Positions 14,977-50,072 of a stretch of DNA of 64,000 bases are shown here, piece by piece; the stretch's first letter is position 1, and each line of letters begins with the position of its first letter. The DNA is taken from positions 80,308 through 144,307 of the IMG/VR virus record IMGVR_UViG_3300031999_001882. One strand, 5' to 3'. The notes beneath the pieces were generated by a model that saw nothing but the letters and a program-made list of their open reading frames with translations, made no database searches and had not been told where the DNA came from. This stretch comes from a virus. Both the position numbers and the translations under genes were made by a program.

Positions 14977-15196
14977 TGCTGGCCTCCTGTTTCTCTTTCT
15001 GTTTTCGGCGCTTCTTCATCAAGTGTGATTTGCAAACGACATGACCCTGCGCGGCCTTTTTCTTACAGAGCGGACAAAGGCCAAACCGTTTCATCGCCTC
15101 GTACATGGATTCTGAACGAGGCTTCTTACTTATTTTTTCTGAAAGTCCGATGGCACTAACCCCTTTTCGATATTGCCGATGATTGCGTCGTAGCAA
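14945..15196 (-). CDS. Small basic Cys/His protein (start uncertain)
   Basis: CPLC...C..H followed by Lys/Arg-rich tail. Confidence 0.4.
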   Translation of the reverse strand: MLRRNHRQYRKGVSAIGLSEKISKKPRSESMYEAMKRFGLCPLCKKKAAQGHVVCKSHLMKKRRKQKEKQEASNAVRSFDGGL

Positions 15197-21542: not shown

Positions 21543-22598
21543 TTAGCCGCGATTCAGCGTGTCCTGAGTCCACAGATTCGAGAGACGTTCGACCGCGCTT
21601 CCCTGCGAGGTTTTTTCAGGACCAAGCACCACAGGGGGCACATCTCCTTCACCTTCGTCAAGACTGCTGAATGTTTCAACACCTTCGGGTTTCGGTAATC
21701 CTTCGGATTTCGGTAGTCCTGCACCAGAAACTTTTGACTGGACCTTTTCGATGACACTTTCCAGCGCGGCAAGCGCCTTGTCGTCAAGTTCGGCCAGTTC
21801 TTTGCGGCAAGCTTCAAGATCAGCTTCCTCGATACCGATTTCGGTCAGCTCATGGAGAATCGCGTCAATGGCGGTAGCCTTCTCCCTCTGAACTTCCTCC
21901 TCGGCTTTCTTCTGTAGCGCGGCCTTGGCTTCGGCGGCTTCCTTCTTTGCCGCTTCCACCGCTTTCAGGGCTTCGCCACGTTCATCGAGCGCTCTTTTCA
22001 GCAACTTCATGGGGCCGCTCAAATTTTTTGATTTGAGGTCAATGGCCTTGGTGGGTTCACCAACACCCGCCGGGTCCGGCAGACGATTGAAGAAGTCTTT
22101 GATCTTCCGGCCATGTCCCGGCACGGGAGAGATTTTGCCAGCCAAATCTCGATTGGCTTTGGCTTCTTCTTCGCTGACAGCTTCGGTCGGTCTTTCTTCC
22201 TTGCTGGCATCCTGCCGGGGCACTTCTTTTTCATTCAGCGCCCAATTCGCATAGTCAAAGTCCTTGTCGCCGGACGTGGCGATCTTTTTGAGTCCCGCTT
22301 TGACCACGGTCTTTTGCGCCGTCACCCATTTCAGGTAACCATCGAAGGTTCCACCACATTCCTTCTTAATCAGATCACAGATTTGTTCAGGTTCAATGAC
22401 CTCGGACTGCTTGCCCTTGACAATCAATTTCTGAATCTCAACGGGCACGACATCTGCGGCCTTCACGACCTTGAGCTTCCCGGCCCCTTCTCTTGCAAGG
22501 AAAAAGGAACGCAGGAACGAATCACGGGCGTTCGAGCCTTCACGAATCATGTATTTCAGCGAGAATTCCATTGTAGATAGCCTCCTATTGGCATTCAT
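21543..22598 (-). CDS. Putative scaffolding protein
   Basis: Charged coiled-coil C-terminal half; lies between protease and MCP. Confidence 0.55.
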   Translation of the reverse strand: MNANRRLSTMEFSLKYMIREGSNARDSFLRSFFLAREGAGKLKVVKAADVVPVEIQKLIVKGKQSEVIEPEQICDLIKKECGGTFDGYLKWVTAQKTVVKAGLKKIATSGDKDFDYANWALNEKEVPRQDASKEERPTEAVSEEEAKANRDLAGKISPVPGHGRKIKDFFNRLPDPAGVGEPTKAIDLKSKNLSGPMKLLKRALDERGEALKAVEAAKKEAAEAKAALQKKAEEEVQREKATAIDAILHELTEIGIEEADLEACRKELAELDDKALAALESVIEKVQSKVSGAGLPKSEGLPKPEGVETFSSLDEGEGDVPPVVLGPEKTSQGSAVERLSNLWTQDTLNRG

Positions 22599-30554: not shown

Positions 30555-30645
30555 GATTCCTCTGGTTCCACTTTTCCGCCGCCCACCACCAAGCTCCCAG
30601 CACCCACGACAACGGCACAGCAATGATCTTGAGCAACAGCCTCAT
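30547..30645 (-). CDS. 32-aa Trp-rich hydrophobic peptide (not in ORF track)
   Basis: MRLLLKIIAVPLSWVLGAWWWAAEKWNQRNRD; ATGA overlap with upstream stop. Confidence 0.5.
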   Translation of the reverse strand: MRLLLKIIAVPLSWVLGAWWWAAEKWNQRNRD

Positions 30646-30827
30646 CCTTGTGTTTGGAGAGGTTTGACGGTGACCCGGTACTCTTGGCCCCTAAAGCTGA
30701 CCGTACCCTCGGCTCCATCTGCAAGATAGTTCGAGTTCGTAAGCCCACCACCAACTCCTTCTGCCAAAGCGTCAAGGCATTCCCTGACGTGCGTCTCCTG
30801 AATCTCGGCCACTTTGGTCCAGCTCAT
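30642..30827 (-). CDS. Small protein with MSWTKVA leader
   Basis: GGAGGGG RBS before ATG 30827; shared leader. Confidence 0.6.
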   Translation of the reverse strand: MSWTKVAEIQETHVRECLDALAEGVGGGLTNSNYLADGAEGTVSFRGQEYRVTVKPLQTQG

Positions 30828-33582: not shown

Positions 33583-33744
33583 TTATTTACCCACCCATTT
33601 GCCGCTTGCCTTGCGCGGCTCTCCGCCGCCCTTCTTCCGGCTCCCGCAGGCTTGGTGATATTTGCCAAGCGACCCCGGCGTGCTCATGGCTTCCACGCCA
33701 CATTTGTCGCACACAACACGGATCGCCGCTTGGCTGACGCTCAT
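33583..33744 (-). CDS. 53-aa Zn-finger-like peptide (not in ORF track)
   Basis: MSVSQAAIRVVCDKCG...H..C; ATGA overlap. Confidence 0.5.
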   Translation of the reverse strand: MSVSQAAIRVVCDKCGVEAMSTPGSLGKYHQACGSRKKGGGEPRKASGKWVGK

Positions 33745-33983
33745 GCAGGCTCCTGCGGCGGCATCTGGCTCCGCGCCCCGCTATCTGGCGGCTCCGGCAG
33801 ATCAGAACCCAACAACGCCAAAGCATCATCAATCAAATCCCGCACCGCTTCGTTGCATTCGTCGGTGGTGTTATGGGCGCACTCGCCCGCCGTGTGCTTG
33901 TAGGCTTCCACCAACACCCTGATCGCCTGTCGTGTTTTCGGTTCGTTAGAAGCAGATGGCCCGGCTGTCTTGGTCCAGCTCAT
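33741..33983 (-). CDS. Small protein with MSWTKTA leader
   Basis: AGGAGG RBS; shared leader. Confidence 0.65.
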   Translation of the reverse strand: MSWTKTAGPSASNEPKTRQAIRVLVEAYKHTAGECAHNTTDECNEAVRDLIDDALALLGSDLPEPPDSGARSQMPPQEPA

Positions 33984-34180
33984 TGAAATCCTCCTGCTAC
34001 CGATCCCACAACCGCTTCGGCGGCTTCGATAGCCTCTATCACTTCGTCAAAATGATCGCCTTCCGGGTCTTTAATCAGGCCCCGGTCAACCAAATTTCGC
34101 ATGGCCGCCAGCGAAATCACCAACGCATTTTCGAGACTCTTTTCGCGGCCTGCTTCTGGTGCGGCTGTCTTAGTCCACAT
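33980..34180 (-). CDS. Small protein with MWTKTA leader (start revised)
   Basis: AGGAGG RBS before ATG 34180. Confidence 0.65.
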   Translation of the reverse strand: MWTKTAAPEAGREKSLENALVISLAAMRNLVDRGLIKDPEGDHFDEVIEAIEAAEAVVGSVAGGFQ

Positions 34181-34341: not shown

Positions 34342-35732
34342 AAATGTCCGAGTTCAGTATCATGGCTCTGCTGTCGCTCTCTATAGAACAGCTTTCCAAG
34401 ACCTTCTTCTGTAAGGGCCATGATTTTGTTTTCATCCGACTTAAAAGTATCGTCAAAAACAATGCTTCCGTCGGCGATCACAAAAACTAAAAGACCAGCC
34501 TTTGTTCCTATGTCGGCAGATAGCGTATTGTCAACGATATCGACGATCACCGACATAATGGCGTTTGCCGAGAAGAATTGTTCGATATCTTCTCCCGGCA
34601 CTTGGACTTCGTTCTCTATTTTCTCAGCCAATTCTCTGCCATGATATTTGAAGCTCGATATTCGTAACGAAAAATTACGCAGAACTGAATTCTTCTGACG
34701 GATGTATTCGAGAATCTTGGAGACATTCTCGGTCATCGCCTTGTCCACATCCACTTCGTCGCGCTCTGCTTCAAAATACTCAGAAGGCGTGACCTGCTTG
34801 CGCTCGTCCTCAAACGGTTGCTTCTTCACATCTGTCTCGGCATCCATCAGCTTCTCAGAGAGGCCCGTCTCCATCGCTCTCTGCTGGGAATCGCCCGCAG
34901 GTTGCTCAGTCGGGGTGGCTTCGGTCGGCGTAAGCGCCACGCGAATCCACTCCGATTCCTTGGACGAGATATGACCCATTTCTTCCGCGCCCTTGAGCAT
35001 CGTGTCGATCTCGCGGTTGTCGCGTGCGTGCCGATATAAGTGCGTGTAGATGGCCGAAGCCCGCTCGCCCAGCTCTGCGGCCTGCAACAGAATGCTGGGG
35101 TTGTTCGAGTCCAGCGTGCTCAGCGCTTCGCCATCGTCCTTAAAGTCCTTCATCTGGTCTTTGGTGAGCGGTGCGTCAAAGAGCATTGCTTCCTTCACAT
35201 GATCCTTGAGTCCTTTGATCGCGTGATCGGAAGTCAGATACATCTCGACGACATCTCGCTGAGTATCGCCCTTCTGACCAAAAAGAGCGAAGCCCCAATT
35301 AAACGGATTTATGAAAAAATAATCGTACTTTTCTTTGCCCTTGGCTTCGCCCCATCCCATCGAGATTCCGGGGATGGTCGGAGGCGTGCTCAAGAACTTC
35401 GCCGGGTTCAGGAGATCGTAGGGGTGGATGCCCGTGAGATGCTTAAAAGCCCGCACGATCTCATCTCGCTGATAGCCGAGAGAAATCAGGTAGCCTTCCA
35501 TGAACTTGTAAGCAAAGCGGCCCTCATTGATGAGACGCTTTAAGTTTCTCTCAAGCTCAATGCGCTCCGGGCGCGTGTTGGTCCCGGCGTAATAGACATC
35601 AGCGTATTGATGGCTGATATTCCAGTCACGGGCGGAGGCGGTTCGTTTGGTCTTTTCCAATGCGTTAAGAACGGGGTCGAAGTCTCCCCCTTCAAAGTCG
35701 GTCACTTCATTTTCCAGCCAATTTTTAGACAT
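34338..35732 (-). CDS. Hypothetical multidomain protein, putative head-associated
   Basis: AGGAGG RBS; KRTAS motif after acidic N-terminal peptide. Confidence 0.7.
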   Translation of the reverse strand: MSKNWLENEVTDFEGGDFDPVLNALEKTKRTASARDWNISHQYADVYYAGTNTRPERIELERNLKRLINEGRFAYKFMEGYLISLGYQRDEIVRAFKHLTGIHPYDLLNPAKFLSTPPTIPGISMGWGEAKGKEKYDYFFINPFNWGFALFGQKGDTQRDVVEMYLTSDHAIKGLKDHVKEAMLFDAPLTKDQMKDFKDDGEALSTLDSNNPSILLQAAELGERASAIYTHLYRHARDNREIDTMLKGAEEMGHISSKESEWIRVALTPTEATPTEQPAGDSQQRAMETGLSEKLMDAETDVKKQPFEDERKQVTPSEYFEAERDEVDVDKAMTENVSKILEYIRQKNSVLRNFSLRISSFKYHGRELAEKIENEVQVPGEDIEQFFSANAIMSVIVDIVDNTLSADIGTKAGLLVFVIADGSIVFDDTFKSDENKIMALTEEGLGKLFYRERQQSHDTELGHL

Positions 35733-35804: not shown

Positions 35805-36032
35805 CTACCCGTTGCGTTGCCCGTTACTGCTTGCCACGGCTCTTAACGCCTTCAAAGTATCTTCATCCAGACGTGATCCTAAGCTGAAATCCAACCTCTC
35901 TGGCCGGGCTTGCGCCGGGCGCTCTTGTCTTACAAACGCCTGCGGCTGACGACGAACGACCTTCTGCATCGGCCTTACGGCCTGAGTCTTTCGATCTAAG
36001 AGTTCTACAGCCCGGTCGAGACTTCCCATCAT
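35805..36032 (-). CDS. Small hypothetical protein
   Basis: ATGA overlap with giant ORF stop. Confidence 0.55.
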   Translation of the reverse strand: MMGSLDRAVELLDRKTQAVRPMQKVVRRQPQAFVRQERPAQARPERLDFSLGSRLDEDTLKALRAVASSNGQRNG

Positions 36033-39000
36033 TTCGTTGGTTCGAGTTCTTTCTCAGCGATAGTAAATTGCGATCCAGTACGCTGGCCGTAAGAATCCAG
36101 CGTAATCACTTCATAGCTTTTGTCCGCAGAGATCGCAGAAGCCACACGCTTGATGATCTCGGCTTTGTCACCGGACACCAACCAGACGTGAGAGCCTTCC
36201 GCGAAGCGATACCCGGCGTTCTTGAAGAAGTCGGCTGTCGATTGAAGCTTCATAGAGAGCTTTTTGCGGCGAAGCTTCTTGGATTCTTTGTCCAGCTCCC
36301 ACGCGCTTCCTACAAGGTCCGAGGACTTGAACTGATCGAAGTAGCGGGCCGCACGCTGGGCGGCTTGCGCTGGCGGCAGATCGGACTTGGTAGCGATCTG
36401 ATCCAAGAGCGCAGTAACGGCGGCTTTGACATCGCCGCCTCTCAGGTAAGCTTCTTCGCCAGCCTTCCAGACCTTTGAAATGTCCATCATATTGATCTGG
36501 TAGCCATACACCGCATCTTGAATGAGGTGCGCCATCTCATCCTTTTGCTTGCGCGTAATCTTGCCGGGAACTGCCGCCTGTTTCTCCACAGATGTGTCGC
36601 CGCCGATAATCCCGTTCTCAACAAACTCGTCCTTCAATTCAGGGAACCGCTCGGCGAGCTGTTCAAAATAAGCCCCCCATTCAGCGAGTTCGCCGTAGCT
36701 GAGGTTCTGCTGACTCACCCAATTCTGCCAGCCTATCGCATAATCTCTGGCTTCTTGGGCAGTCTTGAGGACAGCATAGGGAGCCTTCTTGAGTTCTTTG
36801 GCCGCCGTGACTTCGGCAGTCGCAGGAGTGGCTTCGGCTTCCTTGGCCTTCTCCTCTTTGCGCTTGGCCCGGTCCTCCTGCTGTTCCTTGAGCCGCTTCT
36901 CCATCTTCTCAAGCGCGTCCACGGTTGACGCGATCTCTGAGGGGTCGGCTTTGTCCACATCCAAATCCTTGAGCTTGCGCCGGAGCGACTTCACCTGATC
37001 CGACAATCCTGATTCGACTTCCATGCTGGCCTCCTTTAACTCGAACGGTTCTTCTCCTGCATAGGTGAAGATGGTTTTGCCAGTCTCCGCCAAGTCCTCT
37101 AAAGGAGAACGCAACTCATACTGCGGATACCACCAAAACTTTGGCTTGCTTCCGAAATCAATCTCTCCGTTGTCATCCAAGCTTCCATCGGAGATGATGA
37201 GCGAATCAGTCAAAGCGCCGATCTGCTCTGGCCGAACTAACATATAGCCGTTGCCAAACATCGGCTCAAGATAATCCAGCAAACGCGAATCGCTCTGATC
37301 CTCAACATCCTGTCGGATTTCCTCTAAATCATCACCCGTTGCGGTGATCTCAAGATTCTTATTTGGCAGAACCTTCCAGCTTATACCGCCGCGAGCCTTC
37401 TTCTCCATTGACCCAAACGCACTCCCGGTCATAATACCCAGCGCCGCCTGCACGCCTCCGGCATCTGCCCCGGCCCCGATAAGCGCCTGCGAGATGATGT
37501 GAAGCATCACCTTGCCTTGGCTCTTATACTGGTCCAAGACCCCCATGTAATCGCCGTAGTGCCCCTTGGTGGTGGCGGGCTTGCTCTCGATGTGCTTGAC
37601 CATCTCGATGATGTCCGGGTCTTTCGACAGCATATCAATGGCCTGCTTAATCTTCTGCTCTCTGGACACTTCCGGCCCGCCGAAGCGATCTAAGCTGGCC
37701 GCCATCTCCATCGGCTCCTCCGGTTGTGCTTTGGCCTTGCCGATTTCCTCCGCATTGGCATCTTGCGCCTGCTGGATCGCGGCCTTGATTCCGGCCTCGT
37801 CGCCCTCAGTCGCATCACTCAAATAGCGGCGAATCTGGGTCTGAATCTTGGAGGTGGTCACCGAATACTTCTGCGTGTTGAAGAAGGTTTCTCCGGTGTT
37901 GCTTCGGAACACGATGGGGGTCGCATAGTTCACCAGCGCCCAGCCACCCGGATACTTCTGGATGGTCAAGTGCTCTGTGCCCCAGCGATCCCGCTTGTCT
38001 TTGGGGAACGAATCGTGCGCGAACATCTCAATAACCTGCTCGTTGGAGGCGGCCTCAACCTTCATTGCGGCGGTCGGCTTGCCCGGCCACTCATCGCCTT
38101 CGGACATCGCCACGCAGTTCGCGTGCGCGAAAGAAGTCGGCATCACTTCCCCCGGCTCAGATTTGGAATCCACGATCATATCCCCGGCCTCGATTGCGTT
38201 GCCGCATATCGGGCACGTCTCTCCGATCTCTCCTTCTTCGGCAGATCGCGCCTCTAGCTTGGAATAACACTCGTTACACAACGCTTCGTTAGGGTCATCG
38301 CCTTCGCCCCAGCCTTCCGGCATCTCCACGGGCTTCCCGCATTGAGGACACGACACGCGCTGAGCGGCCTTCTGCTTGCGCCAGCTCTTGAACTCCTCGC
38401 TGTTGCGAACTTCGTCGCTTTCCTTCTTCTCCGGCGACTCGCGCCACTTCTTGTCCTCGTCTTGGAGCCGCTTCACGTCCTTCTGATTCTTGGGATTGTG
38501 TTCCAGAGGAGGCCAGCCAGAAGCGTCAACCTTGGTCGGCATATTGTCCGGGTCACAGCCGCATTCGTTGACGATATCATTCATCTTGCCGCAGGTCGGG
38601 CACTTGTGAATCCCGGCTTTGCGGTCATGCTTCTCGGCCAGCTCCTTCTCGAAATCCGCCAGCTCCTTACAATCCTTGCACCAGCGCGAGCCTTTCTCGG
38701 CATCGGCCTTGTGACAGAGCGTGCACTTCTGGGCGGAGGTCACCACTTGAAGGCCGCCGTGGTCATCCAAGAACCAGATGGTCGGATAGAAATTGCCCTG
38801 ATCCACCGCTTTGACGGCGGCAATCAGCTCGTCCCACTCCGGCGACTCGGCGAGCTTCTTACCGCTCTGATAAGCGGCGTACATCCCGCCAAGCTGTCCT
38901 TCGGTCTGGATCACGATATCGTCCTCGGCAGGCTCCTGCATCTCCTCCGAGTCAAACTCCTCCACCTCGGCTTCGGCTGTGCGCTTGCTGGCTTTCTTCT

Positions 39001-42000
39001 CTGATTTCTTTTGTTGCAGGATGGCTTCTGCTTCCTTGATTCGCTTGGCAACATACGCCTGCGTGCCCTTATCGGTCACATCGTTCATGCGACTCATCCA
39101 GTTATCAATGAGCGCTTCCAGCTCGGCTACTGATTTATCCTTGAGATCGCTGGCTGTGCGCTTGCTGGCGATGGTGTCTTTCCAATAAACCCAAGCGACC
39201 GTCACCTTGTCATTCTCCACTTCGTCGATCTTGACGGCATAACCCGCCGAAGCATAAGCGCCCTTCACGCCGTTAAAGCCCAGCTTCGCCAGATCACCAT
39301 TGGGTTCCACAACCTCGAACTCGCCCAGATCAAAGATGTTCCCGTCATACCGGAAGAAGTCGCCCTCTCCGTTCTCGACGTAATCCAGCTCCTTCTTCTC
39401 CTCGTCAGTCAGTTGAGAATAATCCATGAGCGGAACAGTCTGCTCGTTCTTAACCACCAATCCAGTCGGCCCCGCTTGGTCATCGGCCTTCTTTTCAAGG
39501 GGTGGTTTCCGGTGCTTAACCGGGATATAGTGATGTTCGTCATCCAAGCATTTGTCGCATTGTCCACGTCGTTCGCGTGTCTCGTTGTCGTGATTTTTGA
39601 GCGGGTGTCTGCATACGGCACATGGCGGGGCATCAACATTCTCTTTGAGCGGAGCATCAGCCTTGCGTCTGGCGGCCTGCGTCGGCGGCTTGCCCTGTAG
39701 CTCGGCAATGCCTGTGCTGATCCCTTCGCCCACGCCACGGTCGTACTCCTCCCACAGCTCATCAGCATTCTCGGCCTTGTTAAAGGCGCTGGCAAGAAAC
39801 TCGAAGGGCGTATATTGCCGACCATTCTGCTCGGCCTCAAACGCTTCGTCGGCGATCTTTTCCACGTCGAGATTGCCTTGGGCATCTTTATAGCCTTGGA
39901 ATTCGCCCTTGTTCGTGATGATGATGTTGAATCCCTCGTCATAGCCCATGCGGTACGCTTCATCCGGCATGATCGGTTCTTCTGCGCCCCGGCGACCCAG
40001 CGCCGAATAGAGACGCACCTTGGCTTCTTTGGAGAGCGGCTTGAGCGAGGACTGCTTGGTGGGTGGAATGTCGCCTTCTTCCAGATGCTCGATCTCGCCG
40101 CTCTCGGTGAACGCCAGATCATTGGCCTCCGCATCCTCTTTGATGTATTCGTCGGACTGCTGGTACTCAAGCTCGGCATAGCCGTCCTTCTCAAGCTGAC
40201 TACACAACTCCTGACGAACCTCGTCGATATACTGGATGAACTCGACGTACAGCTTCTCAAATTCCTCCGTGGACATCCCGGCTTCTGCGGCCAGATCATC
40301 CATGCTTCCGGGGGTATTGTCCTCCACCTTGACGGTGTATTTGTGGGAGTAATGATGGTCGATGCTCTTGAGGTCGATGTAAAGCGACTCATAGAACTTG
40401 GCGAAGATATTGAACCGCTCGTTCGGGTGCGCTTGCAGGAACTTCGCCACGTCCATGTGCGCGGTAAAGCTCACGCCGGAACCCTGCGTCGAGCTGAGAT
40501 CGTAATTCACCTTCGGGTTCACAAACCCGTGCTCTTGCAAATCGCTCTCGGCATTCTCTTTCCAGAAATCAACGTCCGCCATTTCGTAATACTTATAGCG
40601 CACCTTGTCCTTGGCCTTCTCATCCAGATCATCGAAGGTAAAGAGATCGACCTTCCGGTAGAAGGTGTGCTTGGGCTTGCGCGGCTCGTCGGCAAATCGC
40701 TTCATAAAGCTCTCCTTGGCGGCGAGGCGCGAAGCCTCTTTGCTGATATTCTTGGCATAGGCCATCGCTTCTTCGCGTGAATCAAATGTCTTGTTGCCAG
40801 CGCCGGACTTATCCCGCTCGCCGCCGTGCTGAATGCCATCCACCAGCACCATGAACTTTCCGCCCAAAGCTTCCTTGATCGAAACATTCTCAGGCATCGA
40901 CGACTTCCTTGTGCGCCGCCCGACGCGCTGTTCCGTCGGATTCACATAGACATTGTTATCCTGATCCTTGAAGAAGTCAGCGCCAAAAGAATCGAACTGG
41001 CCGCCGTTACGTTCATAGGGATCGAGAAACACCAGCTTGAAGTCCGTCGCCAAATCGCTGGCCGACATATAAAGGAACTCTGTGTTCGGCTCCTCGTCCT
41101 CTTTAAGCGGCTCGCCCGTCAGCGCTTGGTAATCCTCTTTGCTCCAATCGTTCGCATAGACCCGGAGAACCATCTCTGCCGTCTCGACTTCTCCACCCGG
41201 CGGGACCAGCATATAGACTCGATGGCCGCTCTGCATATCGGTGTCGGTCAAAAGAGTCCAGCCCGTGCGAATCTCTCCGATGTTCTCTACCGCATTCCAG
41301 TCCACCTGAGTCTTGAGCGCTTCGCCATCGCCTTGAGTCAGCTCGGCGGGCAATGTCTTGAGCATTGCCACGGCTTCCGCGCCACTACCTTCCGCATATT
41401 CGGTCAGGGTAGCCGAGTAATTCACCTCGGTCCGCGCCCAATCCAAGAGGAATGCCAACTGCTCATCAGTCAGCGCGGCGGCTTTGCGGCTCACCTTCTT
41501 AGCTTCAAACTCTTTGCGGTGTTCTTTCTCCTGCGAGATGGCGTGGTCCAGCACTTCCTTGAGCGCTGGGCTGGCATCTTCCTTCTGCCCGCGATACTCG
41601 TCGATAGCGGCCTGCTCCTGCTCCACATCGCGCTTGACGATCTCAGCATCCCGGTCGGCTTTGCGCTTGGACGCGAAGGGCATCTTCATCTGCGCGGGGT
41701 TCTCTGGCGGTGTCAGCTCTTGTTTGATCGCTTGGTGAACGCCGGAGTCCTCGGCATACTTCAACAGGTCTTTGGCATCCATAAAAGCTTCACCGTTGTT
41801 TTCAAAGGACGACTCCACAGCTTCCCATAAGAGTTGAAGCACGCGCTCGGAAGGCTCATACGCTTCGAGTGCTTCCTGCTTCTCCGCCGGAAGCTCCTTC
41901 GCCAAATCTTCCTTGACCCATTTCAGGGCTTCATCCTTACCCCATACGTCAAACGATTCCCGGTATTCCTGCTGTTCTGCATTCGTAAGAGCTTCCTCAT

Positions 42001-43363
42001 CAAGCACCGGATAATCGGCCATGTCGCGCTCAATGCCTTCGGCAATCGCTACCTTGTCGGCGGCATCTTTATGGACCAGCAAGAATTCAACCCAGCCCAC
42101 CGCCCAATGACCTGACTTTGCCACGACCACGCCATTGCCTTCGCCGCCCAAAGCTTTGAGCGCCGCATCGAAATTGGTTTTCTCAAGCGCTTCGGAGTCC
42201 CGGTTCTGCGTGAGCACGACATAATAATCGGAGTAGTCGTCGCCCATATAATTCTCGGCAGGCTTCCACAGTTCGAGCGCCTTGCGCTTTAAGCTGGCCG
42301 TGTCATAACGACCCTTGATGGGCGGCGCGGTCTTTTTGCCTGTGCCTTTGCAATAGGGGCACGTCTCCAAAGGCCCGGCTCCGGTGCGTGACTTCCCATA
42401 ACCAGCGCAATACTCACACTCTGCTCCGTCTGCCGCCTTCGCTGTCATGCCGCCCTCCAAATAGACGTTGCCATCGTCGCCAACAATAGCATCGCAGTTC
42501 CCGAAGGCTCTGGCAATGTCGCTCAGCTTCTCACCCACATCGCCCAGCCCGCGATCCCAGAAGCCCGCGCCATGCCCACAGCGCGTCAGCCAGAAGTCAT
42601 GGCCCGCCTGCTCATCGTCAATCTCATTTAAGAGATCGCCTGCTTGCTGGCGAAACGCCGCGCAATCGGCCTTGGCCTTCTCGATGCTCTCCGGGGCAAT
42701 ATCCTCGATCCCGAAGTTCTGATCCAGAGGTTCGCCGCCCGTCTCCGGGTCAGAGTTGTCGTTCGACGACCATAGCGCCGCTTCGAGATAGGCCGACACA
42801 AAGGGATCAAGCCCTGCGGCTTGCCGAGATGTCTTGGCCTGCTCATCGACCAGCCGCTTGTTGTGCTCGCCCTGCATATGCTCGAACGACTCCTCAGATT
42901 CATTTAAGGGTTCGCCCTTGGCTCGCTTGGCTTTGATCTTGGCTTCCATCTCCTCCTGCCACGCTACAGTCCCGAACTGAGCCGCCGACTTGGTTGCGGG
43001 CTTAACCTTGGCCCAGCACGCATCACACAGCGCCCCAAAATTCTGTTCGTTGAACATCCGCTCTCTGGCAGGCTGGCCGTCGTTCTTGCATTGGCGAGCC
43101 GCATCCCGGTTCCCGAAGTCCCGCTCTAAGATGCCCGTCTCGCAGGAGTCGCACAGCCCAGCCGCCGCGCCATAGGTATTGATGATGGTGTCCTTGCCAC
43201 ACTTCTTACACTTGCCTTGGGCGGCAGAGCGCTTGGAAGCCGCGCACGCGCAGGTTCCCCCGCAGGCGCACGTCTCCGACTCTTGACGAATTTTTGAAGG
43301 AGCTTTTTTGTCTTTTGGCTCCACGATATCTGTCCAATGATTTTTCAATACCGCTTTATCCAT
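36029..43363 (-). CDS. Giant (2444 aa) multidomain polyprotein-like protein
   Basis: More than 20 small acidic domains and Zn fingers separated by basic [KR]-x-A linkers; AAGGAG RBS. Confidence 0.85.
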   Translation of the reverse strand: MDKAVLKNHWTDIVEPKDKKAPSKIRQESETCACGGTCACAASKRSAAQGKCKKCGKDTIINTYGAAAGLCDSCETGILERDFGNRDAARQCKNDGQPARERMFNEQNFGALCDACWAKVKPATKSAAQFGTVAWQEEMEAKIKAKRAKGEPLNESEESFEHMQGEHNKRLVDEQAKTSRQAAGLDPFVSAYLEAALWSSNDNSDPETGGEPLDQNFGIEDIAPESIEKAKADCAAFRQQAGDLLNEIDDEQAGHDFWLTRCGHGAGFWDRGLGDVGEKLSDIARAFGNCDAIVGDDGNVYLEGGMTAKAADGAECEYCAGYGKSRTGAGPLETCPYCKGTGKKTAPPIKGRYDTASLKRKALELWKPAENYMGDDYSDYYVVLTQNRDSEALEKTNFDAALKALGGEGNGVVVAKSGHWAVGWVEFLLVHKDAADKVAIAEGIERDMADYPVLDEEALTNAEQQEYRESFDVWGKDEALKWVKEDLAKELPAEKQEALEAYEPSERVLQLLWEAVESSFENNGEAFMDAKDLLKYAEDSGVHQAIKQELTPPENPAQMKMPFASKRKADRDAEIVKRDVEQEQAAIDEYRGQKEDASPALKEVLDHAISQEKEHRKEFEAKKVSRKAAALTDEQLAFLLDWARTEVNYSATLTEYAEGSGAEAVAMLKTLPAELTQGDGEALKTQVDWNAVENIGEIRTGWTLLTDTDMQSGHRVYMLVPPGGEVETAEMVLRVYANDWSKEDYQALTGEPLKEDEEPNTEFLYMSASDLATDFKLVFLDPYERNGGQFDSFGADFFKDQDNNVYVNPTEQRVGRRTRKSSMPENVSIKEALGGKFMVLVDGIQHGGERDKSGAGNKTFDSREEAMAYAKNISKEASRLAAKESFMKRFADEPRKPKHTFYRKVDLFTFDDLDEKAKDKVRYKYYEMADVDFWKENAESDLQEHGFVNPKVNYDLSSTQGSGVSFTAHMDVAKFLQAHPNERFNIFAKFYESLYIDLKSIDHHYSHKYTVKVEDNTPGSMDDLAAEAGMSTEEFEKLYVEFIQYIDEVRQELCSQLEKDGYAELEYQQSDEYIKEDAEANDLAFTESGEIEHLEEGDIPPTKQSSLKPLSKEAKVRLYSALGRRGAEEPIMPDEAYRMGYDEGFNIIITNKGEFQGYKDAQGNLDVEKIADEAFEAEQNGRQYTPFEFLASAFNKAENADELWEEYDRGVGEGISTGIAELQGKPPTQAARRKADAPLKENVDAPPCAVCRHPLKNHDNETRERRGQCDKCLDDEHHYIPVKHRKPPLEKKADDQAGPTGLVVKNEQTVPLMDYSQLTDEEKKELDYVENGEGDFFRYDGNIFDLGEFEVVEPNGDLAKLGFNGVKGAYASAGYAVKIDEVENDKVTVAWVYWKDTIASKRTASDLKDKSVAELEALIDNWMSRMNDVTDKGTQAYVAKRIKEAEAILQQKKSEKKASKRTAEAEVEEFDSEEMQEPAEDDIVIQTEGQLGGMYAAYQSGKKLAESPEWDELIAAVKAVDQGNFYPTIWFLDDHGGLQVVTSAQKCTLCHKADAEKGSRWCKDCKELADFEKELAEKHDRKAGIHKCPTCGKMNDIVNECGCDPDNMPTKVDASGWPPLEHNPKNQKDVKRLQDEDKKWRESPEKKESDEVRNSEEFKSWRKQKAAQRVSCPQCGKPVEMPEGWGEGDDPNEALCNECYSKLEARSAEEGEIGETCPICGNAIEAGDMIVDSKSEPGEVMPTSFAHANCVAMSEGDEWPGKPTAAMKVEAASNEQVIEMFAHDSFPKDKRDRWGTEHLTIQKYPGGWALVNYATPIVFRSNTGETFFNTQKYSVTTSKIQTQIRRYLSDATEGDEAGIKAAIQQAQDANAEEIGKAKAQPEEPMEMAASLDRFGGPEVSREQKIKQAIDMLSKDPDIIEMVKHIESKPATTKGHYGDYMGVLDQYKSQGKVMLHIISQALIGAGADAGGVQAALGIMTGSAFGSMEKKARGGISWKVLPNKNLEITATGDDLEEIRQDVEDQSDSRLLDYLEPMFGNGYMLVRPEQIGALTDSLIISDGSLDDNGEIDFGSKPKFWWYPQYELRSPLEDLAETGKTIFTYAGEEPFELKEASMEVESGLSDQVKSLRRKLKDLDVDKADPSEIASTVDALEKMEKRLKEQQEDRAKRKEEKAKEAEATPATAEVTAAKELKKAPYAVLKTAQEARDYAIGWQNWVSQQNLSYGELAEWGAYFEQLAERFPELKDEFVENGIIGGDTSVEKQAAVPGKITRKQKDEMAHLIQDAVYGYQINMMDISKVWKAGEEAYLRGGDVKAAVTALLDQIATKSDLPPAQAAQRAARYFDQFKSSDLVGSAWELDKESKKLRRKKLSMKLQSTADFFKNAGYRFAEGSHVWLVSGDKAEIIKRVASAISADKSYEVITLDSYGQRTGSQFTIAEKELEPTK

Positions 43364-44633: not shown

Positions 44634-47600
44634 CTACGAAACAGACAACACTTGATCGAGGACATCCATCGCCTGAGCTTCTGTGAGCTTGAACTCACGC
44701 ATCAAATCCTCGGCAATTTCATCCTCATTGGCCTGACCCAGCCGAACAAGATCACGGGCCAAATCAAGAGCGCTGTTCGTAGGAATATCCGGCTCGGTCG
44801 GTCCTCGCTTCGGATATACGTCGCGTGTTCCAGTTTCTACAGCATCTTCAAATTGATCGCGGTAAGTGGCCGGGGCGCTTTGCCCCGGTGCTTCTGTCGG
44901 GCCGCCCTTCTCTGCGTCCGTGTCGGTATGCGCGTGCATATCGTTGGTCTTGAGACTGAACGGTTTGACCCAGCCCCAAGACACCATGCGCCCATAAATC
45001 TCCGTGGCAGACATCCCTGTGCCGCCGCCTGTCTCCGCCGCATAGCGCTGTGCCAGTACCTCTGCCTGCTTCTCATCAAGGAACGCATGATCCGGTTCGA
45101 TGTCTGTGCCAAGAAATTCGCGGGCCAAGACCAGCAAAGACTCCTGCTCGTCCTCCGCCCGGCGCTTGATCTCGGCCACCTTCTCGTTGCCGGAGAGCGA
45201 GGCTTCCAGCTCAAGGAGCCGGACAAAAGCCGGAGCGCCCTTCGCGGAAGCCGCAACCCACTCAAACCCACTATTGGATTTAGCGGTGCGCCAGCCGGGG
45301 TTGCCCTGAACCAGCGAGCGCCATTCATCGAACTCCGTGGCTTTCACAAAGCCAGCGCCAGACTTCACAAATATGATCCGGCCAATGACCTTGGGGGCCG
45401 GGCGCGGCGTTGGGGCTGAGGGCGGCGTGCGGACCACAGGCTCCTCGCCGGGGGCCGGGTTAGACTCCGGCTCTGGCTCGGCGGCGGGCGCAGGCTTCGG
45501 CGCTTCGCCTTTAATCTGATCCACCGGGGTCGGAGGCATGACTGGCCCGCCAGCCGGGGCAGATTCGTCCGGCTTCGGTTCCTTCGGGGGCGGCTCCTCA
45601 ATCCCGGTCTGCTTGGATAGCTGGTCGTGAATCTTCCGCACGTCCTCTTTGGTGTATTTGAGCTGGTTGCGAGAAAGCCATGTGTAGATTTCGTGCTGGA
45701 TTGCGTCGAACTCCATGCCTTTGAGCTTTTCTAAGGTCACCAGCTCAAGGATTCGGTTCGCCACATAGACAGGTTGGAGGGAGATCGCGGCCTTCACAGT
45801 CCCGCCGCGCTTGCCGGAGCCGCCACAGTCCGGGCAATCCACGAAATGCCAGCCATCCTCGGAATGCTCCTTGGCCTCTTGCTCGGCCCATAGCTTCTTG
45901 AACACTTCCCGGCTGTCGTCCGCCTTGACCGGAACAAAGCCCGTGCCTTCGCAATGGCCTTGGCACATGGTCGCCGGGTCAGGCAAAGCCATGCCCAGCG
46001 CCTCGTAGCGGTCCGATGCCTTTTTGCCGGGAAGCCTTGCCTGCACCACCAGATAGCCGCCGTCACCATCCTCGCCAATCACCTGAGCGCCGGAGCCAAA
46101 ATTCACTTCCGTGGCTTCGCCATAGCGCCGCGCATCTGCCTTGGCCTTGGTCACCCACATGGCATTGATCGCCGGGATGCCTTCAAACTTGGCCCATTGG
46201 TCTTGGCCGATGTAGCTGGCCGCCGGGTTGCCCAGCTCCTCGACTTCGTGGCGCACGACATCGGCCACGCTCTCCTTGCCATGCTGATACCCGGTGTCGG
46301 CGCGGTACGCCTTGCCGTTCCAAGGGTAAGGGAACTTACCGGGAATCCCGGTGTCTCCGGCCACGGCCCCATTTCCCGGTATGCCAGCCGCCGCCTTGAT
46401 ATCGGCCCACGTCATCAGGTCCGCAGGAATGTCCGGCAAAATGTCCGGGGCTTTTGGTTGTAAAGACAATGCTTTCTTGGTGTTCTGCATCGGGATGATG
46501 GCGGCGGACTTGTCCACAGTATCCACAGACTTACCCACATTGCCGACCTTAAAAGATAGTTTCGTTTCTTGTGGAACAATTCTTGGAGCTAAGCTGTCGG
46601 GGTATGCGCTCTCAGGTTGCACAGGTGGCACATCCAAACCACCATGAACGGGTTGCTGTAATTCGTGTGACGCATCTCTGAATTTTGGCTCCCGCACTTG
46701 GCGCACGGTTCCTTCTTTATCAGACCCTTTTTGACGTAATATCTCGACAGCTTCCTCATGCTCACCTTCTCCGCTTGCGCCGGAGTGAGGGGCTTTTTCG
46801 TTCGTGGTTGTCGAGGGAGAGTTCTTAAAATCTCTTGATGGTGTGCGTGATGGCATGGACGACACAGCCACACTATTTCCAGAGGCTTGCTGTGATCTGG
46901 ATGGTGCATTTGAGAGATCGGATTCCCGCACAGAGCGCAAGGCTCCATCACTTTCTCCTTGCCTCGCCGAAGATGATTCCAAGCAATCTGCCGCGCTTTT
47001 TTTCTCATCTTCTGCGCTTCCGTCAGAGGGCGACCCTTGCTCCACACCAGCATATACTCCCTCATGTATTTCCGATGACACATGAGGCAACGTCCATTGC
47101 CGCGCATTCTCTTTTGGCCGCACAAGCACAGAGTCGAATCCATGATCGTCAATTATAGACCACTTTTTAAGGCTACTCCAAACTTTCAAATCCTCAATGG
47201 ACACATCCACGTTGGTCAAATTCTCCCAGAACTCCTTGCCCTCCGGCTCATACTCGATGCCGGACTCGATCTCGGCGCTCAGATTCAGCTTCATCTCGCC
47301 GTCTTTCACGCCCGTGGCCTTGTTCACCAGCTCTACAAAGACCTCGGCAAACACCAGCCCCTCGTCCTGATCCATCCCGGTCACGATGATGTTCGGCTTG
47401 AACGCCGCGAAATCTAGCTCCAAATAGCTCGACACCAGATCGGGCAACACATCAAGCGTGTGAAATTCCACCTGCTCCGACCAGCGCCATGCCGCGCCCT
47501 CGCGCTCGCCTTCGGCTGGCGTAGGGGTGCGTGGATCGTCAACCTTCATGGTCTTAACGCTAGGCCCTTTGGCCTTCTCTGGTAAACTTGCGCCACCAGC

Positions 47601-48944
47601 CTCCGGCGGCTTCGCCGCACGGGGAGGCTCCGCCTCCGCATCGCCGCTCTCAGGTTGATTCGCCTTATCTGGCGAATCGTTTTTGATCTTGGTATGTTCT
47701 GATACCGCTTTTTCGTTGGTATGTTCTGATACCAGCTTGGGGGGATGATCCTCTATGCGGCGCGGCTCGCCGGGTTCTTGCGCGGTCCGGGTGACCGGGG
47801 AGTAATCGGTGACCATCTGGATGACCTCAGTCGCATTGGCCTGAACGTAATCGTCGAAAGCTCTGGTGATAAACCCATGATCGCAGGCCAGAGCGCTCCA
47901 CAGCCGCAGGTCGTCCGGGGCCAGCTCCATGCCTTCTTCCAGCCACGAAATGACCTCTGGCAACAGTTCTTGGCCGAACCATGATGCCTGCCTCTTGGCT
48001 CGCTTATCGTCCATTGGTGTGATGCCTTGGTCGATCACTTCCTTGACCTGAGACACATCCTCCGGGGCCAGTTGCGGGGCTTCGTCGGCATCACCCATGA
48101 TCTTCTCCAAGGTTTTCCACAGCCAGATATAGCCGAACTTTTGCAGGTACTTAAACCGGATGTTCTCTTTAGAGTCCGGCTGATACCCTTCATCCCGTTG
48201 GTCCGAGATATCTTGGGCCGTTTGCATCACATCCACCAGCTCTTGCTCAAGCTCCTCGGTCCGCTCCTTGAGCCTTTGCTGAAACTTCAACCGGGCCTGT
48301 CCGTCCATGTTGGACATGGCTTCTTTCAGCGCTTCGATATTCTTCACATCGCGCTTGGCTTTGCCGATGGTCATGTCCAGATCAGACGCGATGGATTCTG
48401 AGTCGTCGATGATCTTCTGGTAAATCTCCTGCGGGTCCATGTCCAAATCCACGGTCCTTGGTTCCTTGATCCATGCGTCCGATGACAAATTGTAGTCGCC
48501 GTCGGTGATATGCGGCTTCATATGGGGAGTTTCAAATGAGAACTCCAAGGGATGCTGAGTGCCCGGCACGATGAACTTCTCGGCTCTCATCGCGTCCTTG
48601 TACGAGTCCAGCACATCGTCCAAGGCACTCTGATCCAAGCCCGGATACTCGGCTTGGAGAGTCGGCCAGTCCACGATGATGTGAACATCCAAATCAGATC
48701 GAGAATTGTATTGGTATGAGGTGAGTGACCCGATGATATGAAACTGATTAACCCACGGCTCGCCATCCAAGAAAGCCTTGGCCTGTGAGAAGATGAACTC
48801 TTTGATCTCTGGGCGCAGAGTGCCGTCATCCTGCCATACGTCCGGGTCCAGACCGGGGCGGGCATAGTCCAGCACATTCGCCACCCGGACAGATTTAGAC
48901 TTCGGGGTGAATTTAGTCCTTCGCCTTAAATTAGTCGTCGTCAT
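44634..48944 (-). CDS. 1436-aa multidomain protein: N-terminal Pol-beta-type nucleotidyltransferase, later ART-like and DnaJ-type Zn-finger segments
   Basis: IIGSLTSYQYNSRSDLDVHII (hGS...DxD); AYR...WVT....ARRYG; CQGHCEGTG...CPDCGGSG. Confidence 0.75.
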   Translation of the reverse strand: MTTTNLRRRTKFTPKSKSVRVANVLDYARPGLDPDVWQDDGTLRPEIKEFIFSQAKAFLDGEPWVNQFHIIGSLTSYQYNSRSDLDVHIIVDWPTLQAEYPGLDQSALDDVLDSYKDAMRAEKFIVPGTQHPLEFSFETPHMKPHITDGDYNLSSDAWIKEPRTVDLDMDPQEIYQKIIDDSESIASDLDMTIGKAKRDVKNIEALKEAMSNMDGQARLKFQQRLKERTEELEQELVDVMQTAQDISDQRDEGYQPDSKENIRFKYLQKFGYIWLWKTLEKIMGDADEAPQLAPEDVSQVKEVIDQGITPMDDKRAKRQASWFGQELLPEVISWLEEGMELAPDDLRLWSALACDHGFITRAFDDYVQANATEVIQMVTDYSPVTRTAQEPGEPRRIEDHPPKLVSEHTNEKAVSEHTKIKNDSPDKANQPESGDAEAEPPRAAKPPEAGGASLPEKAKGPSVKTMKVDDPRTPTPAEGEREGAAWRWSEQVEFHTLDVLPDLVSSYLELDFAAFKPNIIVTGMDQDEGLVFAEVFVELVNKATGVKDGEMKLNLSAEIESGIEYEPEGKEFWENLTNVDVSIEDLKVWSSLKKWSIIDDHGFDSVLVRPKENARQWTLPHVSSEIHEGVYAGVEQGSPSDGSAEDEKKSAADCLESSSARQGESDGALRSVRESDLSNAPSRSQQASGNSVAVSSMPSRTPSRDFKNSPSTTTNEKAPHSGASGEGEHEEAVEILRQKGSDKEGTVRQVREPKFRDASHELQQPVHGGLDVPPVQPESAYPDSLAPRIVPQETKLSFKVGNVGKSVDTVDKSAAIIPMQNTKKALSLQPKAPDILPDIPADLMTWADIKAAAGIPGNGAVAGDTGIPGKFPYPWNGKAYRADTGYQHGKESVADVVRHEVEELGNPAASYIGQDQWAKFEGIPAINAMWVTKAKADARRYGEATEVNFGSGAQVIGEDGDGGYLVVQARLPGKKASDRYEALGMALPDPATMCQGHCEGTGFVPVKADDSREVFKKLWAEQEAKEHSEDGWHFVDCPDCGGSGKRGGTVKAAISLQPVYVANRILELVTLEKLKGMEFDAIQHEIYTWLSRNQLKYTKEDVRKIHDQLSKQTGIEEPPPKEPKPDESAPAGGPVMPPTPVDQIKGEAPKPAPAAEPEPESNPAPGEEPVVRTPPSAPTPRPAPKVIGRIIFVKSGAGFVKATEFDEWRSLVQGNPGWRTAKSNSGFEWVAASAKGAPAFVRLLELEASLSGNEKVAEIKRRAEDEQESLLVLAREFLGTDIEPDHAFLDEKQAEVLAQRYAAETGGGTGMSATEIYGRMVSWGWVKPFSLKTNDMHAHTDTDAEKGGPTEAPGQSAPATYRDQFEDAVETGTRDVYPKRGPTEPDIPTNSALDLARDLVRLGQANEDEIAEDLMREFKLTEAQAMDVLDQVLSVS
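46589..47152 (-). CDS. Nested out-of-frame HNH-like endonuclease (two HNH-like repeats)
   Basis: PCALCG....MHHPDHSKPLEIVWLCRPCH..HH and degenerate copy PCAKCG....RHTNYSNPFMVVWMCHLCN..H; likely ATG 47143. Confidence 0.75.
   Translation of the reverse strand: MTIMDSTLCLCGQKRMRGNGRCLMCHRKYMREYMLVWSKGRPLTEAQKMRKKARQIAWNHLRRGKEKVMEPCALCGNPISQMHHPDHSKPLEIVWLCRPCHHAHHQEILRTLPRQPRTKKPLTPAQAEKVSMRKLSRYYVKKGLIKKEPCAKCGSQNSEMRHTNYSNPFMVVWMCHLCNLRAHTPTA
47152..47181 (-). promoter_or_regulatory. Internal promoter for nested HNH gene
   Basis: TTGGAG-18 nt-TATAAT, 8 nt upstream of ATG 47143. Confidence 0.5.
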
Positions 48945-49569: not shown

Positions 49570-49634
49570 TGAACCACCATCGTGAACACCTTGGCTCCTA
49601 TCATCGCTACCCAGATGATTGCCCAGAGCGGCAT
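49566..49634 (-). CDS. 22-aa hydrophobic peptide (not in ORF track)
   Basis: MPLWAIIWVAMIGAKVFTMVVQ; TAATG and ATGA overlaps on both sides. Confidence 0.4.
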   Translation of the reverse strand: MPLWAIIWVAMIGAKVFTMVVQ

Positions 49635-49804
49635 TACCGGATGCCTCGCACGTCGCTTGCCAAGCTTTCCAGCTCGACCGCGATCCCTTCCGTGTCGCCC
49701 GGTTCCATCGCCCCGCCTTCCAACTGGTCAGCGATCATCCTCAACTGCTGAGCCATCTGCTTGAGAAAAGGCGCGTTCGGTGCGGCTGTTTTGGTCCAAG
49801 ACAT
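49634..49804 (-). CDS. Small protein with MSWTKTA leader (start revised)
   Basis: TAAGGAG RBS before ATG 49804. Confidence 0.65.
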   Translation of the reverse strand: MSWTKTAAPNAPFLKQMAQQLRMIADQLEGGAMEPGDTEGIAVELESLASDVRGIR

Positions 49805-49814
49805 AATGTTCTCC

Positions 49815-50072
49815 TTATTGAGTGTAGCCAATAGCGATCTCGCCTACGGTCACGGCGGCTTCATCGCCCTCGGCATATTTTTTGTTCACAATGATGATCT
49901 TCTTACCGCCGTGCTTAATGTAGAAATGCGGAACCGGATCAAAAGAGAAATCAATGTCCTTCGGCTTAAACAAGGACTCCAATGGCTTTCTCAGGCTCAC
50001 CAAGGTTTTGCCCTCAGCGAGCTTGGCGATCTGATCCAGCACAGGGTCGGCGGCAATCTTTGTCCAGCTCAT
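49815..50072 (-). CDS. Small protein with MSWTKIA leader
   Basis: GGAGG RBS; shared leader. Confidence 0.7.
   Translation of the reverse strand: MSWTKIAADPVLDQIAKLAEGKTLVSLRKPLESLFKPKDIDFSFDPVPHFYIKHGGKKIIIVNKKYAEGDEAAVTVGEIAIGYTQ

Follow-up and report, generated by a model that had tools for sequence, protein, structure and literature searches.

A chain of small modules encoded among the head genes of an uncultured phage as a candidate capsid cargo polyprotein

Two groups of proteins are the closest described systems for the locus discussed here. Polyvalent proteins, which are known from phages as well as from conjugative elements, combine 2-15 domains in one chain, their release by embedded peptidases has been proposed, and an analogy to the polyproteins of RNA viruses has been drawn (Iyer, Burroughs, Anand, de Souza and Aravind, 2017; PMC5512222). 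The internal proteins IPI-III and Alt of phage T4 are loaded into the head by a capsid-targeting sequence (CTS) of 10-19 residues, which is removed by the protease gp21 at L/I-x-E; in phiKZ and SPN3US, too, numerous proteins of the head interior are cut (PMC9026906). Here we describe P0001, a protein of 2444 amino acids (aa) that is encoded on a single phage contig of 144,307 bp (IMG/VR record IMGVR_UViG_3300031999_001882); the final 64 kb of this contig are called the window, and positions refer to it. The open reading frame (ORF) occupies 36029..43363 on the minus strand (ATG at 43363, stop at 36029, no internal stop). P0001 is a chain of 20-25 small modules, and we regard it as probable, from sequence comparisons, that it is a cargo polyprotein, which would enter the capsid and be cleaved there by the prohead serine protease of the phage. 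This reading is supported by the module borders, the cassette behaviour of the modules, the sites in head proteins, a shared leader, the generality of the linker, protease fusions and the gene context.

Like the polyvalent proteins, P0001 unites many unrelated small domains in one chain, has virion genes as neighbours and shows extreme mosaicism between close relatives. Delivery together with the DNA and release by a peptidase have been proposed for polyvalent proteins, and a DarA-type neighbour is encoded beside P0001. However, the zincin MPTase, ArdC-N, DarB methylase-helicase, DarA-N and LPD domains were not detected in P0001 with Pfam and NCBIfam, and its 20-25 modules compare with the 2-15 domains of polyvalent proteins. 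The peptidase is encoded in trans or fused N-terminally in the system described here, whereas an assemblin-like peptidase is found only at the C-terminus of polyvalent proteins; in addition, the linker motif of P0001 is shared with head maturation sites and with a leader, and such a motif is not described for polyvalent proteins (PMC5512222).

The T4 CTS system is similar in that a short N-terminal peptide is carried by unrelated proteins and ends in a site of the head-protease type. In T4 the capsid protein is trimmed at this site as well, and the packaged proteins exit with the DNA; here, the capsid site is deduced from conservation and from the starts of alignments. The putative cutting rule calls for Lys/Arg at P3 and Ala (or Ser) at P1, where the T4 rule has Leu/Ile and Glu, respectively, the leader has 6-7 instead of 10-19 residues, and the cargo is one giant chain with many sites instead of single proteins. 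The capsid protein has distant relatives in phage G and in mycobacteriophage cluster C types and is not of the gp23 type. Cutting after Ala is known from herpesvirus assemblin, a capsid maturation serine protease with the consensus V/L-x-A|S. It belongs to the same superfamily as prohead serine proteases of the HK97 gp4 type, but it comes from a eukaryotic virus and has no cargo polyprotein, and to our knowledge no basic P3 preference has been found for it. A further parallel is the encapsulated ferritin (EncFtn), a cargo of the HK97-fold encapsulin shell, to whose two-helix unit one bead of P0001 (aa 570-628) aligns marginally (E 0.0085).

The system thus works like the T4 CTS with its internal proteins and like the polyvalent proteins, and by their defining features it is a member of neither group. 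The concept is already known; different here are the lineage, the Ala/basic rule, the missing signature domains, the number of modules and the N-terminal protease fusions. The original prediction, which had been made from the letters of the window alone, spoke of "virus-style polyprotein processing in a phage". This phrase makes the case look newer than it is, because peptidase-linked polyvalent proteins have been known since 2017 (PMC5512222) and the cutting of head proteins in T4 and phiKZ is also established (PMC9026906).

Module borders and turnover of P0001

The modules, or beads, of P0001 are separated by short linkers that end in [KR]-x-A. This motif is present at 51 sites, compared to 34.0 +/- 5.3 in 2000 shuffled sequences that preserved the composition of P0001, and three of the shuffles reached 51. 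The extended form [AS]-S-[KR]-[KR]-x-A occurs four times versus 0.03 times expected, a number that was reached in none of the 2000 shuffles. Because the motif patterns had been chosen after the sequence had been seen, a positional test of the module borders is the stronger evidence. Twenty borders were defined from homology alone, namely, from rearrangement breakpoints in four full-length relatives and from the projected termini of stand-alone homologues, which were found in cultured phages, in a word-indexed search of 5.8 billion proteins and in an exhaustive search of 1.84 billion proteins. At 15 of the 20 borders a [KR]-x-A lies at most six residues away, versus 6.7 expected, and between 1 and 14 of 5000 permutations reached this number.

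The stand-alone homologues have 60-200 aa, and their starts and ends lie at linkers. Alignments that cross linkers represent colinear blocks of several beads; in one of them, that with the relative P0006, a whole zinc-ribbon bead is absent precisely between two linkers (a 46-aa gap in place of aa 312-357). The strict sites divide the chain into 19 segments, several of which hold two to four modules. The original prediction of a single ORF of 2444 aa has been borne out, its figure of more than 20 domains was about right, and all 17 linker strings that it had listed are present in P0001. It had also expected that the ends of stand-alone homologues would match the linkers when the chain was split at the motifs, and this is indeed the case for six bead families, the termini of which project onto linkers; homologous domains that span the linkers, which would have spoken against it, were not seen in these alignments. 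Its view of an expandable cassette of small modules agrees with the observed shuffling, the borders of which coincide with linkers.

Full-length relatives of P0001 have 2320, 1970 (+363), 2385 and 1665 aa and are encoded on phage contigs of 76-159 kb. DNA-level and protein-pattern searches of cultured phages and IMG/VR found no full-length homolog, and a tblastn search with aa 1460-2444 against 50,697 phage records found nothing. The turnover of modules is illustrated by the phage that encodes P0002. It shares 95% identity with the phage of the window in the capsid protein, 81% in the portal and 66% in the protease; of P0001, however, only about 43% can be aligned with P0002, at 44-69% identity and with the shared beads in a different order. 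In the relatives only the first ~47 and the last ~110 residues have fixed positions. The N-terminal block (aa 1-47, CxC...CxC, ending in ASKRSA; 43223..43363, minus strand) is 63% identical to aa 1-49 of P0002, though the following module differs, and the C-terminal domain (aa 2336-2444; 36032..36358, minus strand), which is C-terminal in the relatives too, is 55-62% identical to the C-termini of P0002 and P0003. The N-terminal block, likewise N-terminal in the relatives, is a candidate targeting or anchor element. The LSYGEL bead, described below, has been inserted into the homolog of p464 (see below) in the relative L002. Judged from these alignments, P0001 is subject to cassette-like turnover at its linkers, which is far faster than that of the surrounding virion genes.

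Near-verbatim linkers were also found in other metagenomic polyproteins, e.g. ASKKTA five times in P0067, ASLNKRA, ASRNKRA and ASLKKVA in P0066, and ASFKKNA, ASKKRA and ASKKVA in P0085. The polyprotein of L002 is called as two ORFs (363 and 1970 aa; 8920-10011 and 10001-15913 of L002). This split represents a frameshift or an assembly error and is not real, because the break lies within the HWAVGW bead. The 111-kb relative L010, with a capsid protein that is 59% identical, contains an ORF that is open at its 5'-end (2-1447) and resembles the end of a polyprotein, with linkers of the types ASLQKQS-, ASLNKES- and SSLQKES-. A polyprotein of a third lineage, P0216 (2385 aa; 10001-17158 of L020, on contigs of ~159 kb), contains HWAVGW and YSVTTSK beads.

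Basic, alanine-rich strings between modules do not have to be cut. P0001 could be an uncleaved polyvalent multidomain protein that is perhaps packaged and injected whole, like the virion RNA polymerase of N4, and the strings could be flexible spacers. In our ranking this is the main rival explanation. K, A, S and T are frequent residues in linkers between domains, the motif is not a strong one (the 51 sites stand against 34 expected, and many are inside modules), P0001 itself was found to be without a protease domain in the Pfam and PHROG searches, and some polyvalent proteins are transferred at full length (PMC5512222). However, spacers would not be expected to stay with the upstream module when the downstream module changes. 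This is observed for ASK[RK]xA after the N-terminal block and for GGM[TK][AK][KT]AA, which is kept after the phrog_1915 bead (see below) even where the next module differs. Together with the occurrence of the motif outside of P0001, which is described in the following section, this makes us consider an uncleaved chain unlikely.

The linker motif in leaders, head proteins and protease fusions

Six unrelated ORFs of the late region start with M-[SQ]?-W-T-K-x-A. Their synonymous codons differ, they have good Shine-Dalgarno sequences, and M-x-W-T-K-x-A N-termini are absent elsewhere in the genome. The resemblance of the linkers to the end of an MSWTKxA leader, which the original prediction had pointed out, is thus real, and it is wider than had been claimed. 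Five of the ORFs, all on the minus strand, are small and encode proteins of 61 aa (MSWTKVA, 30642..30827), 80 aa (MSWTKTA, 33741..33983), 66 aa (MWTKTA, 33980..34180), 56 aa (MSWTKTA, 49634..49804) and 85 aa (MSWTKIA, 49815..50072). The sixth encodes a protein of 480 aa (15130..16572, minus strand), which starts with MQWTKQA|D and in which an internal A-W-L-K-K-A|D heads a duplicated segment. This segment is of low complexity, rich in K/E/T/P/D, and forms the N-terminal half of the protein, with W-[TL]-K-x-A-D at the head of each copy. Spacers within a multidomain protein fail to explain why the same string is present at the N-termini of six or more unrelated small proteins, a place that calls for no linker.

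Shared leaders are also found in three related or more distant phages, with the forms MWTKTA, MGWTKLA and (V)WTRTA in relatives and (V)SWLKVA, MVWLKQA and MVWTKKA in the third lineage (the P0216 phage). W-T-K-T-[SA] also occurs inside the polyproteins of relatives. One leader-bearing ORF of 116 aa has a homolog (E 1e-13) inside P0075, namely, a bead flanked by LKKEA and IEKKA. Therefore, leader and linker are interchangeable. Whether the small leader ORFs of this phage could be copies of beads from P0001 was also considered, and for this genome this was rejected; the one such case is between other phages.

A fuller motif, hydrophobic-x-[KR]-x-Ala, unites the linkers and the leaders with sites near the N-terminus of three head proteins (capsid, portal and scaffold). 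The major capsid protein (19983-20984, minus strand) contains F-A-R-S-A|G at aa 41-46 (20847..20864), a candidate propeptide junction. The sequence G-[FL]-x-R-x-A-[GS] is kept in 8/8 homologs, the preceding N-terminal residues drift, and capsid proteins of cultured phages can be aligned only from residue 43-63 onward, so that this site probably marks the end of a propeptide. In the portal (25082-26962, minus strand) F-H-R-S-A (aa 20-24) and F-K-R-Q-A (aa 60-64) are present at 26771..26905, and both sites are kept in 4/4 phages, including one with a portal of only 41% identity (I-G-R-K-A and F-T-R-E-A). The scaffold-like protein (21543-22598, minus strand) has V-V-K-A-A at aa 44-48 (22455..22469), which is conserved in L003 and reads V-V-R-A-S in L010, where protease and scaffold are encoded by one ORF. 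The 464-aa protein p464, which is conserved and encoded downstream of P0001 (34338-35732, minus strand), has T-K-R-T-A|S near its N-terminus (35637..35651) and I-K-[QK]-K-A|SARDW in relatives, so that the pattern K-x-[TK]-A|S is retained. The strict conservation in the N-termini of capsid and portal proteins is likewise not explained by spacers.

The putative prohead protease of 561 aa (22585-24270, minus strand) is encoded between the portal and the scaffold genes. It matches phrog_18299, "head maturation protease", with an E-value of 2e-22, and its protease domain spans about aa 50-220. His94 and the serine of Ser-Met-Gly are invariant in the relatives and are kept in fused forms (S-Q-E in P0005). 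The match to the NCBIfam prohead protease/MCP fusion family (E 1.6e-4) is below the cut-off. Three proteins, P0005 (1810 aa), P0147 (1360 aa) and P0152 (1289 aa), consist of an N-terminal prohead-protease domain followed by chains of beads. The fused domains match the protease of the window with E-values of 3e-9 to 4e-25, and the linkers are of the types ASAKTA-, ASKKEA- and VKA[GAS]D. The C-terminal segments of P0147 and P0152 are similar and by eye look scaffold-like, so that their beads may lie within a protease-scaffold fusion. That bead chains are fused to prohead proteases is a further fact for which flexible spacers offer no explanation. With the shared leader, the sites in head proteins and the protease fusions, what might have passed for a basic spacer is probably a site of processing.

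Two side observations concern the protease genes of other phages. In L010 the protease and the scaffold form one ORF of 753 aa (7169-9430). Each of three prohead-protease homologs has an interruption between its His motif and its Ser motif. Two of them, P0220 (1112 aa) and P0222 (2136 aa), contain intein and LAGLIDADG Pfam domains, and the third, P0221 (1164 aa), has a long insertion in the same place that lacks a Pfam annotation.

The chain could also be cut by a host protease or by another phage protease in the cytoplasm, or be cut only after delivery. This would be in agreement with the absence of the W-T-K-x-A leader from P0001 and with the location of stand-alone homologs in cultured phages, which are found among small hypothetical genes and not in head modules. 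However, the capsid, portal and scaffold N-termini that have the motif are canonical substrates of prohead proteases, beads are directly fused to such proteases, the gene for P0001 is located in the structural module, and no second protease was seen among the large ORFs of the window. Cutting by another enzyme or at another time is therefore very improbable in our view.

If the chain is cut by the prohead protease, the following course of events can be proposed. P0001 would be made late and taken into the prohead, with its fixed N-terminal 47 and C-terminal ~110 residues as candidate anchors or core contacts. The prohead serine protease would then cut it at the linkers between the modules. Its predicted site is hydrophobic-x-[KR]-x-Ala, sometimes with Ser in place of Ala, and the scissile bond would follow the Ala. 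The capsid protein, the portal, the scaffold and p464 would be trimmed at sites of the same type. The M-x-W-T-K-x-A leader would address at least six other proteins to the same pathway, in the style of T4 capsid targeting, and these leaders of 6-7 residues would be removed. The freed modules are proposed to stay in the capsid and to leave it with the DNA. The gene itself behaves as an evolvable array, with its linkers as the exact points of module gain, loss and reordering.

Modules of P0001 and their gene neighbourhood

Whole-chain searches and comparisons with Pfam, NCBIfam and PHROGs yielded only two solid PHROG families, both uncharacterized. With Pfam-A no family was found at E <= 0.1 except a sub-threshold match to Imm52, and with NCBIfam none. 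Several beads that the original prediction likened to stand-alone phage proteins do exist in this form, namely, YLEAALWSS/GHDFWLTR, HWAVGWVE/DYPVLDEE, FFRY, YSVTTSK and LSYGEL. All bead coordinates given in the following are on the minus strand.

The first of these beads (aa 183-311; 42431..42817) lies between the linkers TSRQA and TAKAA and belongs to phrog_1915 (E 1e-29 over aa 181-301). It has matches in 358 phage records, and a stand-alone gene of 129 aa of Serratia phage Kashira matches it end to end. It is followed by a basic zinc-ribbon bead (aa 312-362; 42278..42430; two CxxC, isoelectric point (pI) 9.2), which ends in ASLKRKA and is the one that P0006 lacks. The CxxC fingers of the original prediction thus correspond to zinc-ribbon modules. 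Most beads are strongly acidic (pI 4.1-5) and alternate with basic CxxC zinc ribbons. The HWAVGWVE...YPVLDE bead (aa 363-569; 41657..42277) ends in ASKRKA; about 20 to 50 stand-alone proteins of this family (~160 aa) start at positions that project to aa 346-359, and the linker ASLKRKA comprises aa 356-362.

The next bead (aa 570-628; 41480..41656) has two helices with E-x6-Y...E-x2-H and ends in VSRKA. It had been described as a ferritin-like ExxH segment in the original prediction. A profile of three sequences matched the encapsulated ferritin 6sv1_A (the marginal E-value given above), encapsulated ferritins make up six of the nine top PDB matches, and the ligand columns of E-x6-Y...E-x2-H align. 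However, Pfam gave only sub-threshold matches to Rubrerythrin, COQ7 and EncFtn-like, the latter with 16.3 bits versus a cut-off of 27. A head protein of a phage may here contain a cargo unit of the ferritin type.

Further beads also occur as free proteins. The phrog_5162 bead (aa 892-1127; 39983..40690; E 1e-16 over aa 904-1090) follows the linker MKRFA, and gp040 of Bacillus phage JBP901, a stand-alone protein of 197 aa, covers aa 900-1093. The FFRY...FDLGEF bead (aa 1294-1404; 39152..39484) lies between LEKKA and ASKRTA and is matched end to end by uan_012 of Pseudomonas phage UAntarctica (106 aa, stand-alone), and the termini of P0184 project to aa 1302 and 1399. The YSVTTSK bead (aa 1761-1890; 37694..38083) has borders without a strict [KR]-x-A and is followed by ASLDRF; it was the most common match in the search of 1.84 billion proteins and is found alone (112-131 aa) and within proteins of 500-1700 aa. 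A helical bead (aa 1891-1990; 37394..37693) ends in MEKKA (1986-1990), and its stand-alone relatives (82-104 aa) have ends that project to aa 1980-1988. For the following alpha/beta bead (aa 1991-2112; 37028..37393), which ends in ELKEA, 17 stand-alone proteins of 105-152 aa were found; the shorter ones start at 1989-1994, and all end at 2101-2111. The LSYGEL bead (aa 2195-2263; 36575..36781) is flanked by ELKKA and VEKQA, its stand-alone relatives (60-95 aa) match aa 2191-2253, which the shortest ones cover end to end; these shortest ones start at projected positions 2190-2194, and all end at 2253-2265.

Structure models were generated with AlphaFold2 (AF2). The model of the HWAVGWVE bead has an alpha/beta core plus helices and a predicted local distance difference test (pLDDT) value of 82. 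The model of aa 1885-2115, for which family alignments were used, contains two domains with pLDDT above 90, namely, the helical bead, which consists of five helices, and the alpha/beta bead. The confidence dips at AASLDRF, MEKKA and ELKEA (pLDDT 66-78 across MEKKA and ~50 at both model ends), and the predicted template modelling (pTM) score is 0.56. In these models, the low pTM and the dips at the linkers are as expected for beads on a string.

Stand-alone homologs of the beads in cultured phages are found within arrays of small hypothetical genes, typical early or accessory regions, and many beads have free counterparts, encoded by small genes in unrelated phages that differ in morphotype and host. 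The protein P0216 contains an mCpol (minimal CRISPR polymerase) domain, PF18182, at aa 64-178 (46 bits versus a cut-off of 26) and also DUF7249. The turnover rate, the free homologs among accessory genes and this mCpol domain hint at a role of the modules in conflicts. Another explanation is that the protein is packaged and cut, but that the pieces are structural and form an inner body, an ejectosome or a DNA-organizing core, as in phiKZ and SPN3US, instead of acting on the host. In giant phages many internal head proteins are cut and the fragments stay with the DNA (PMC9026906). A structural role would also be compatible with the coiled-coil and zinc-ribbon modules of P0001 and with the lack of matches to known effectors. 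However, cores are normally conserved, whereas P0001 and P0002, the phages of which have 95% identical capsid proteins, differ over more than half of the chain; free copies of the modules in unrelated phages and conflict-type domains such as mCpol in relatives are likewise not accounted for. Therefore, purely structural pieces seem quite unlikely to us.

The recognizable genes that flank P0001 are all of the phage structural type and all on the minus strand. P0001 is encoded between the gene for a 1436-aa protein and the portal, protease and capsid genes; a tail-fibre gene is located at 32477-33580. In a more distant relative the p464 homolog is encoded directly before the portal. Two HNH/AP2-type endonuclease genes are present (43356-43838 and 29895-30623, minus strand), the first of which overlaps the start of P0001. 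The relative L001 lacks a counterpart of it at this position, and the late operon may thus have received insertions of homing endonucleases. A scan for promoters and terminators around the P0001 gene gave results no better than shuffled sequences.

The 1436-aa protein encoded upstream (44634..48944, minus strand; phrog_36119) has a nucleotidyltransferase (NTase)-like GS...DxD N-terminus, and its homologs in L001 and L002 have weak or faint matches to DarA_C. It contains basic-Ala strings that are similar to the linkers (AKRQA, EKKSA, GKKA and TVKA) and is probably a second cargo protein. The possibility that it is a paralog of P0001 was rejected, as BLAST found no match between the two. It also has long Ser/Pro-rich stretches, and an HNH-like ORF of 187 codons is nested in another frame of its gene (46589-47152).

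Weighing of the cargo reading and its implications

Several observations weigh against a packaged and cleaved cargo polyprotein. P0001 starts MDKAVLKNHWTDIVEPKD, without the W-T-K-x-A leader, and its route into the head is therefore a guess. A strict motif is missing at 5 of the 20 borders, some of which have ASLDRF or K-A instead, 36 of the 51 [KR]-x-A occurrences are within modules, and the motif is short and degenerate; plain flexible linkers also look basic and alanine-rich. The protease has no Pfam match, and neither its domain nor a profile of four sequences found a sequence relative in the PDB. A mostly acidic cargo of 270 kDa is not obviously favorable within a DNA-filled head. No module matched a known anti-defence, toxin, effector or enzyme family in Pfam, PHROGs or NCBIfam, and three folded beads from the two models had no recognizable fold, as Foldseek searches of the PDB and BFVD and comparisons with VIA-align gave nothing above background. 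The best fold-search scores (Z 4.6 and 5.4) represent generic ferredoxin-like folds and helical bundles, the matches in BFVD were uncharacterized phage proteins only, and a search of the ESM Atlas with the homolog P0024 gave no usable match. The term "effector" for the modules is therefore unsupported. Furthermore, the phage is uncultured, and the support for our reading consists of sequence comparisons and structure models.

Nevertheless, capsid loading and cutting by the prohead protease remain the explanation that we favor. A more general proposal is made only tentatively. It holds that a phage lineage unrelated to T4 could use a compact address-and-cut code, hydrophobic-x-K/R-x-Ala, by which any small protein might join the payload, either with a leader of 6-7 residues or by being spliced into the polyprotein. 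The polyprotein would then represent a library of injected modules for host takeover and anti-defence that is rapidly reshuffled. An encapsulin-type ferritin unit would be among these modules, as would an mCpol nucleotide cyclase in relatives, most modules would come from uncharacterized families, and the linker would co-vary with the specificity of the protease (Glu-type in T4-like phages, Ala-type here).

Proteins that are carried in the capsid and delivered in this way are hard to identify without proteomics. If the cargo reading is true, the motif would provide a sequence rule for finding capsid-carried, first-delivered proteins in a large group of uncultured phages. About 20 protein families that are uncharacterized to date, several of which are widespread as free genes in cultured phages, would become candidate early-acting factors. 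The T4 capsid-targeting sequence has already been used for the loading of foreign proteins, and the short leader together with the linker would be a possible tool for loading foreign proteins into capsids. If the address-and-cut reading is also true, capsid payloads would be predictable from sequence alone throughout the virosphere.

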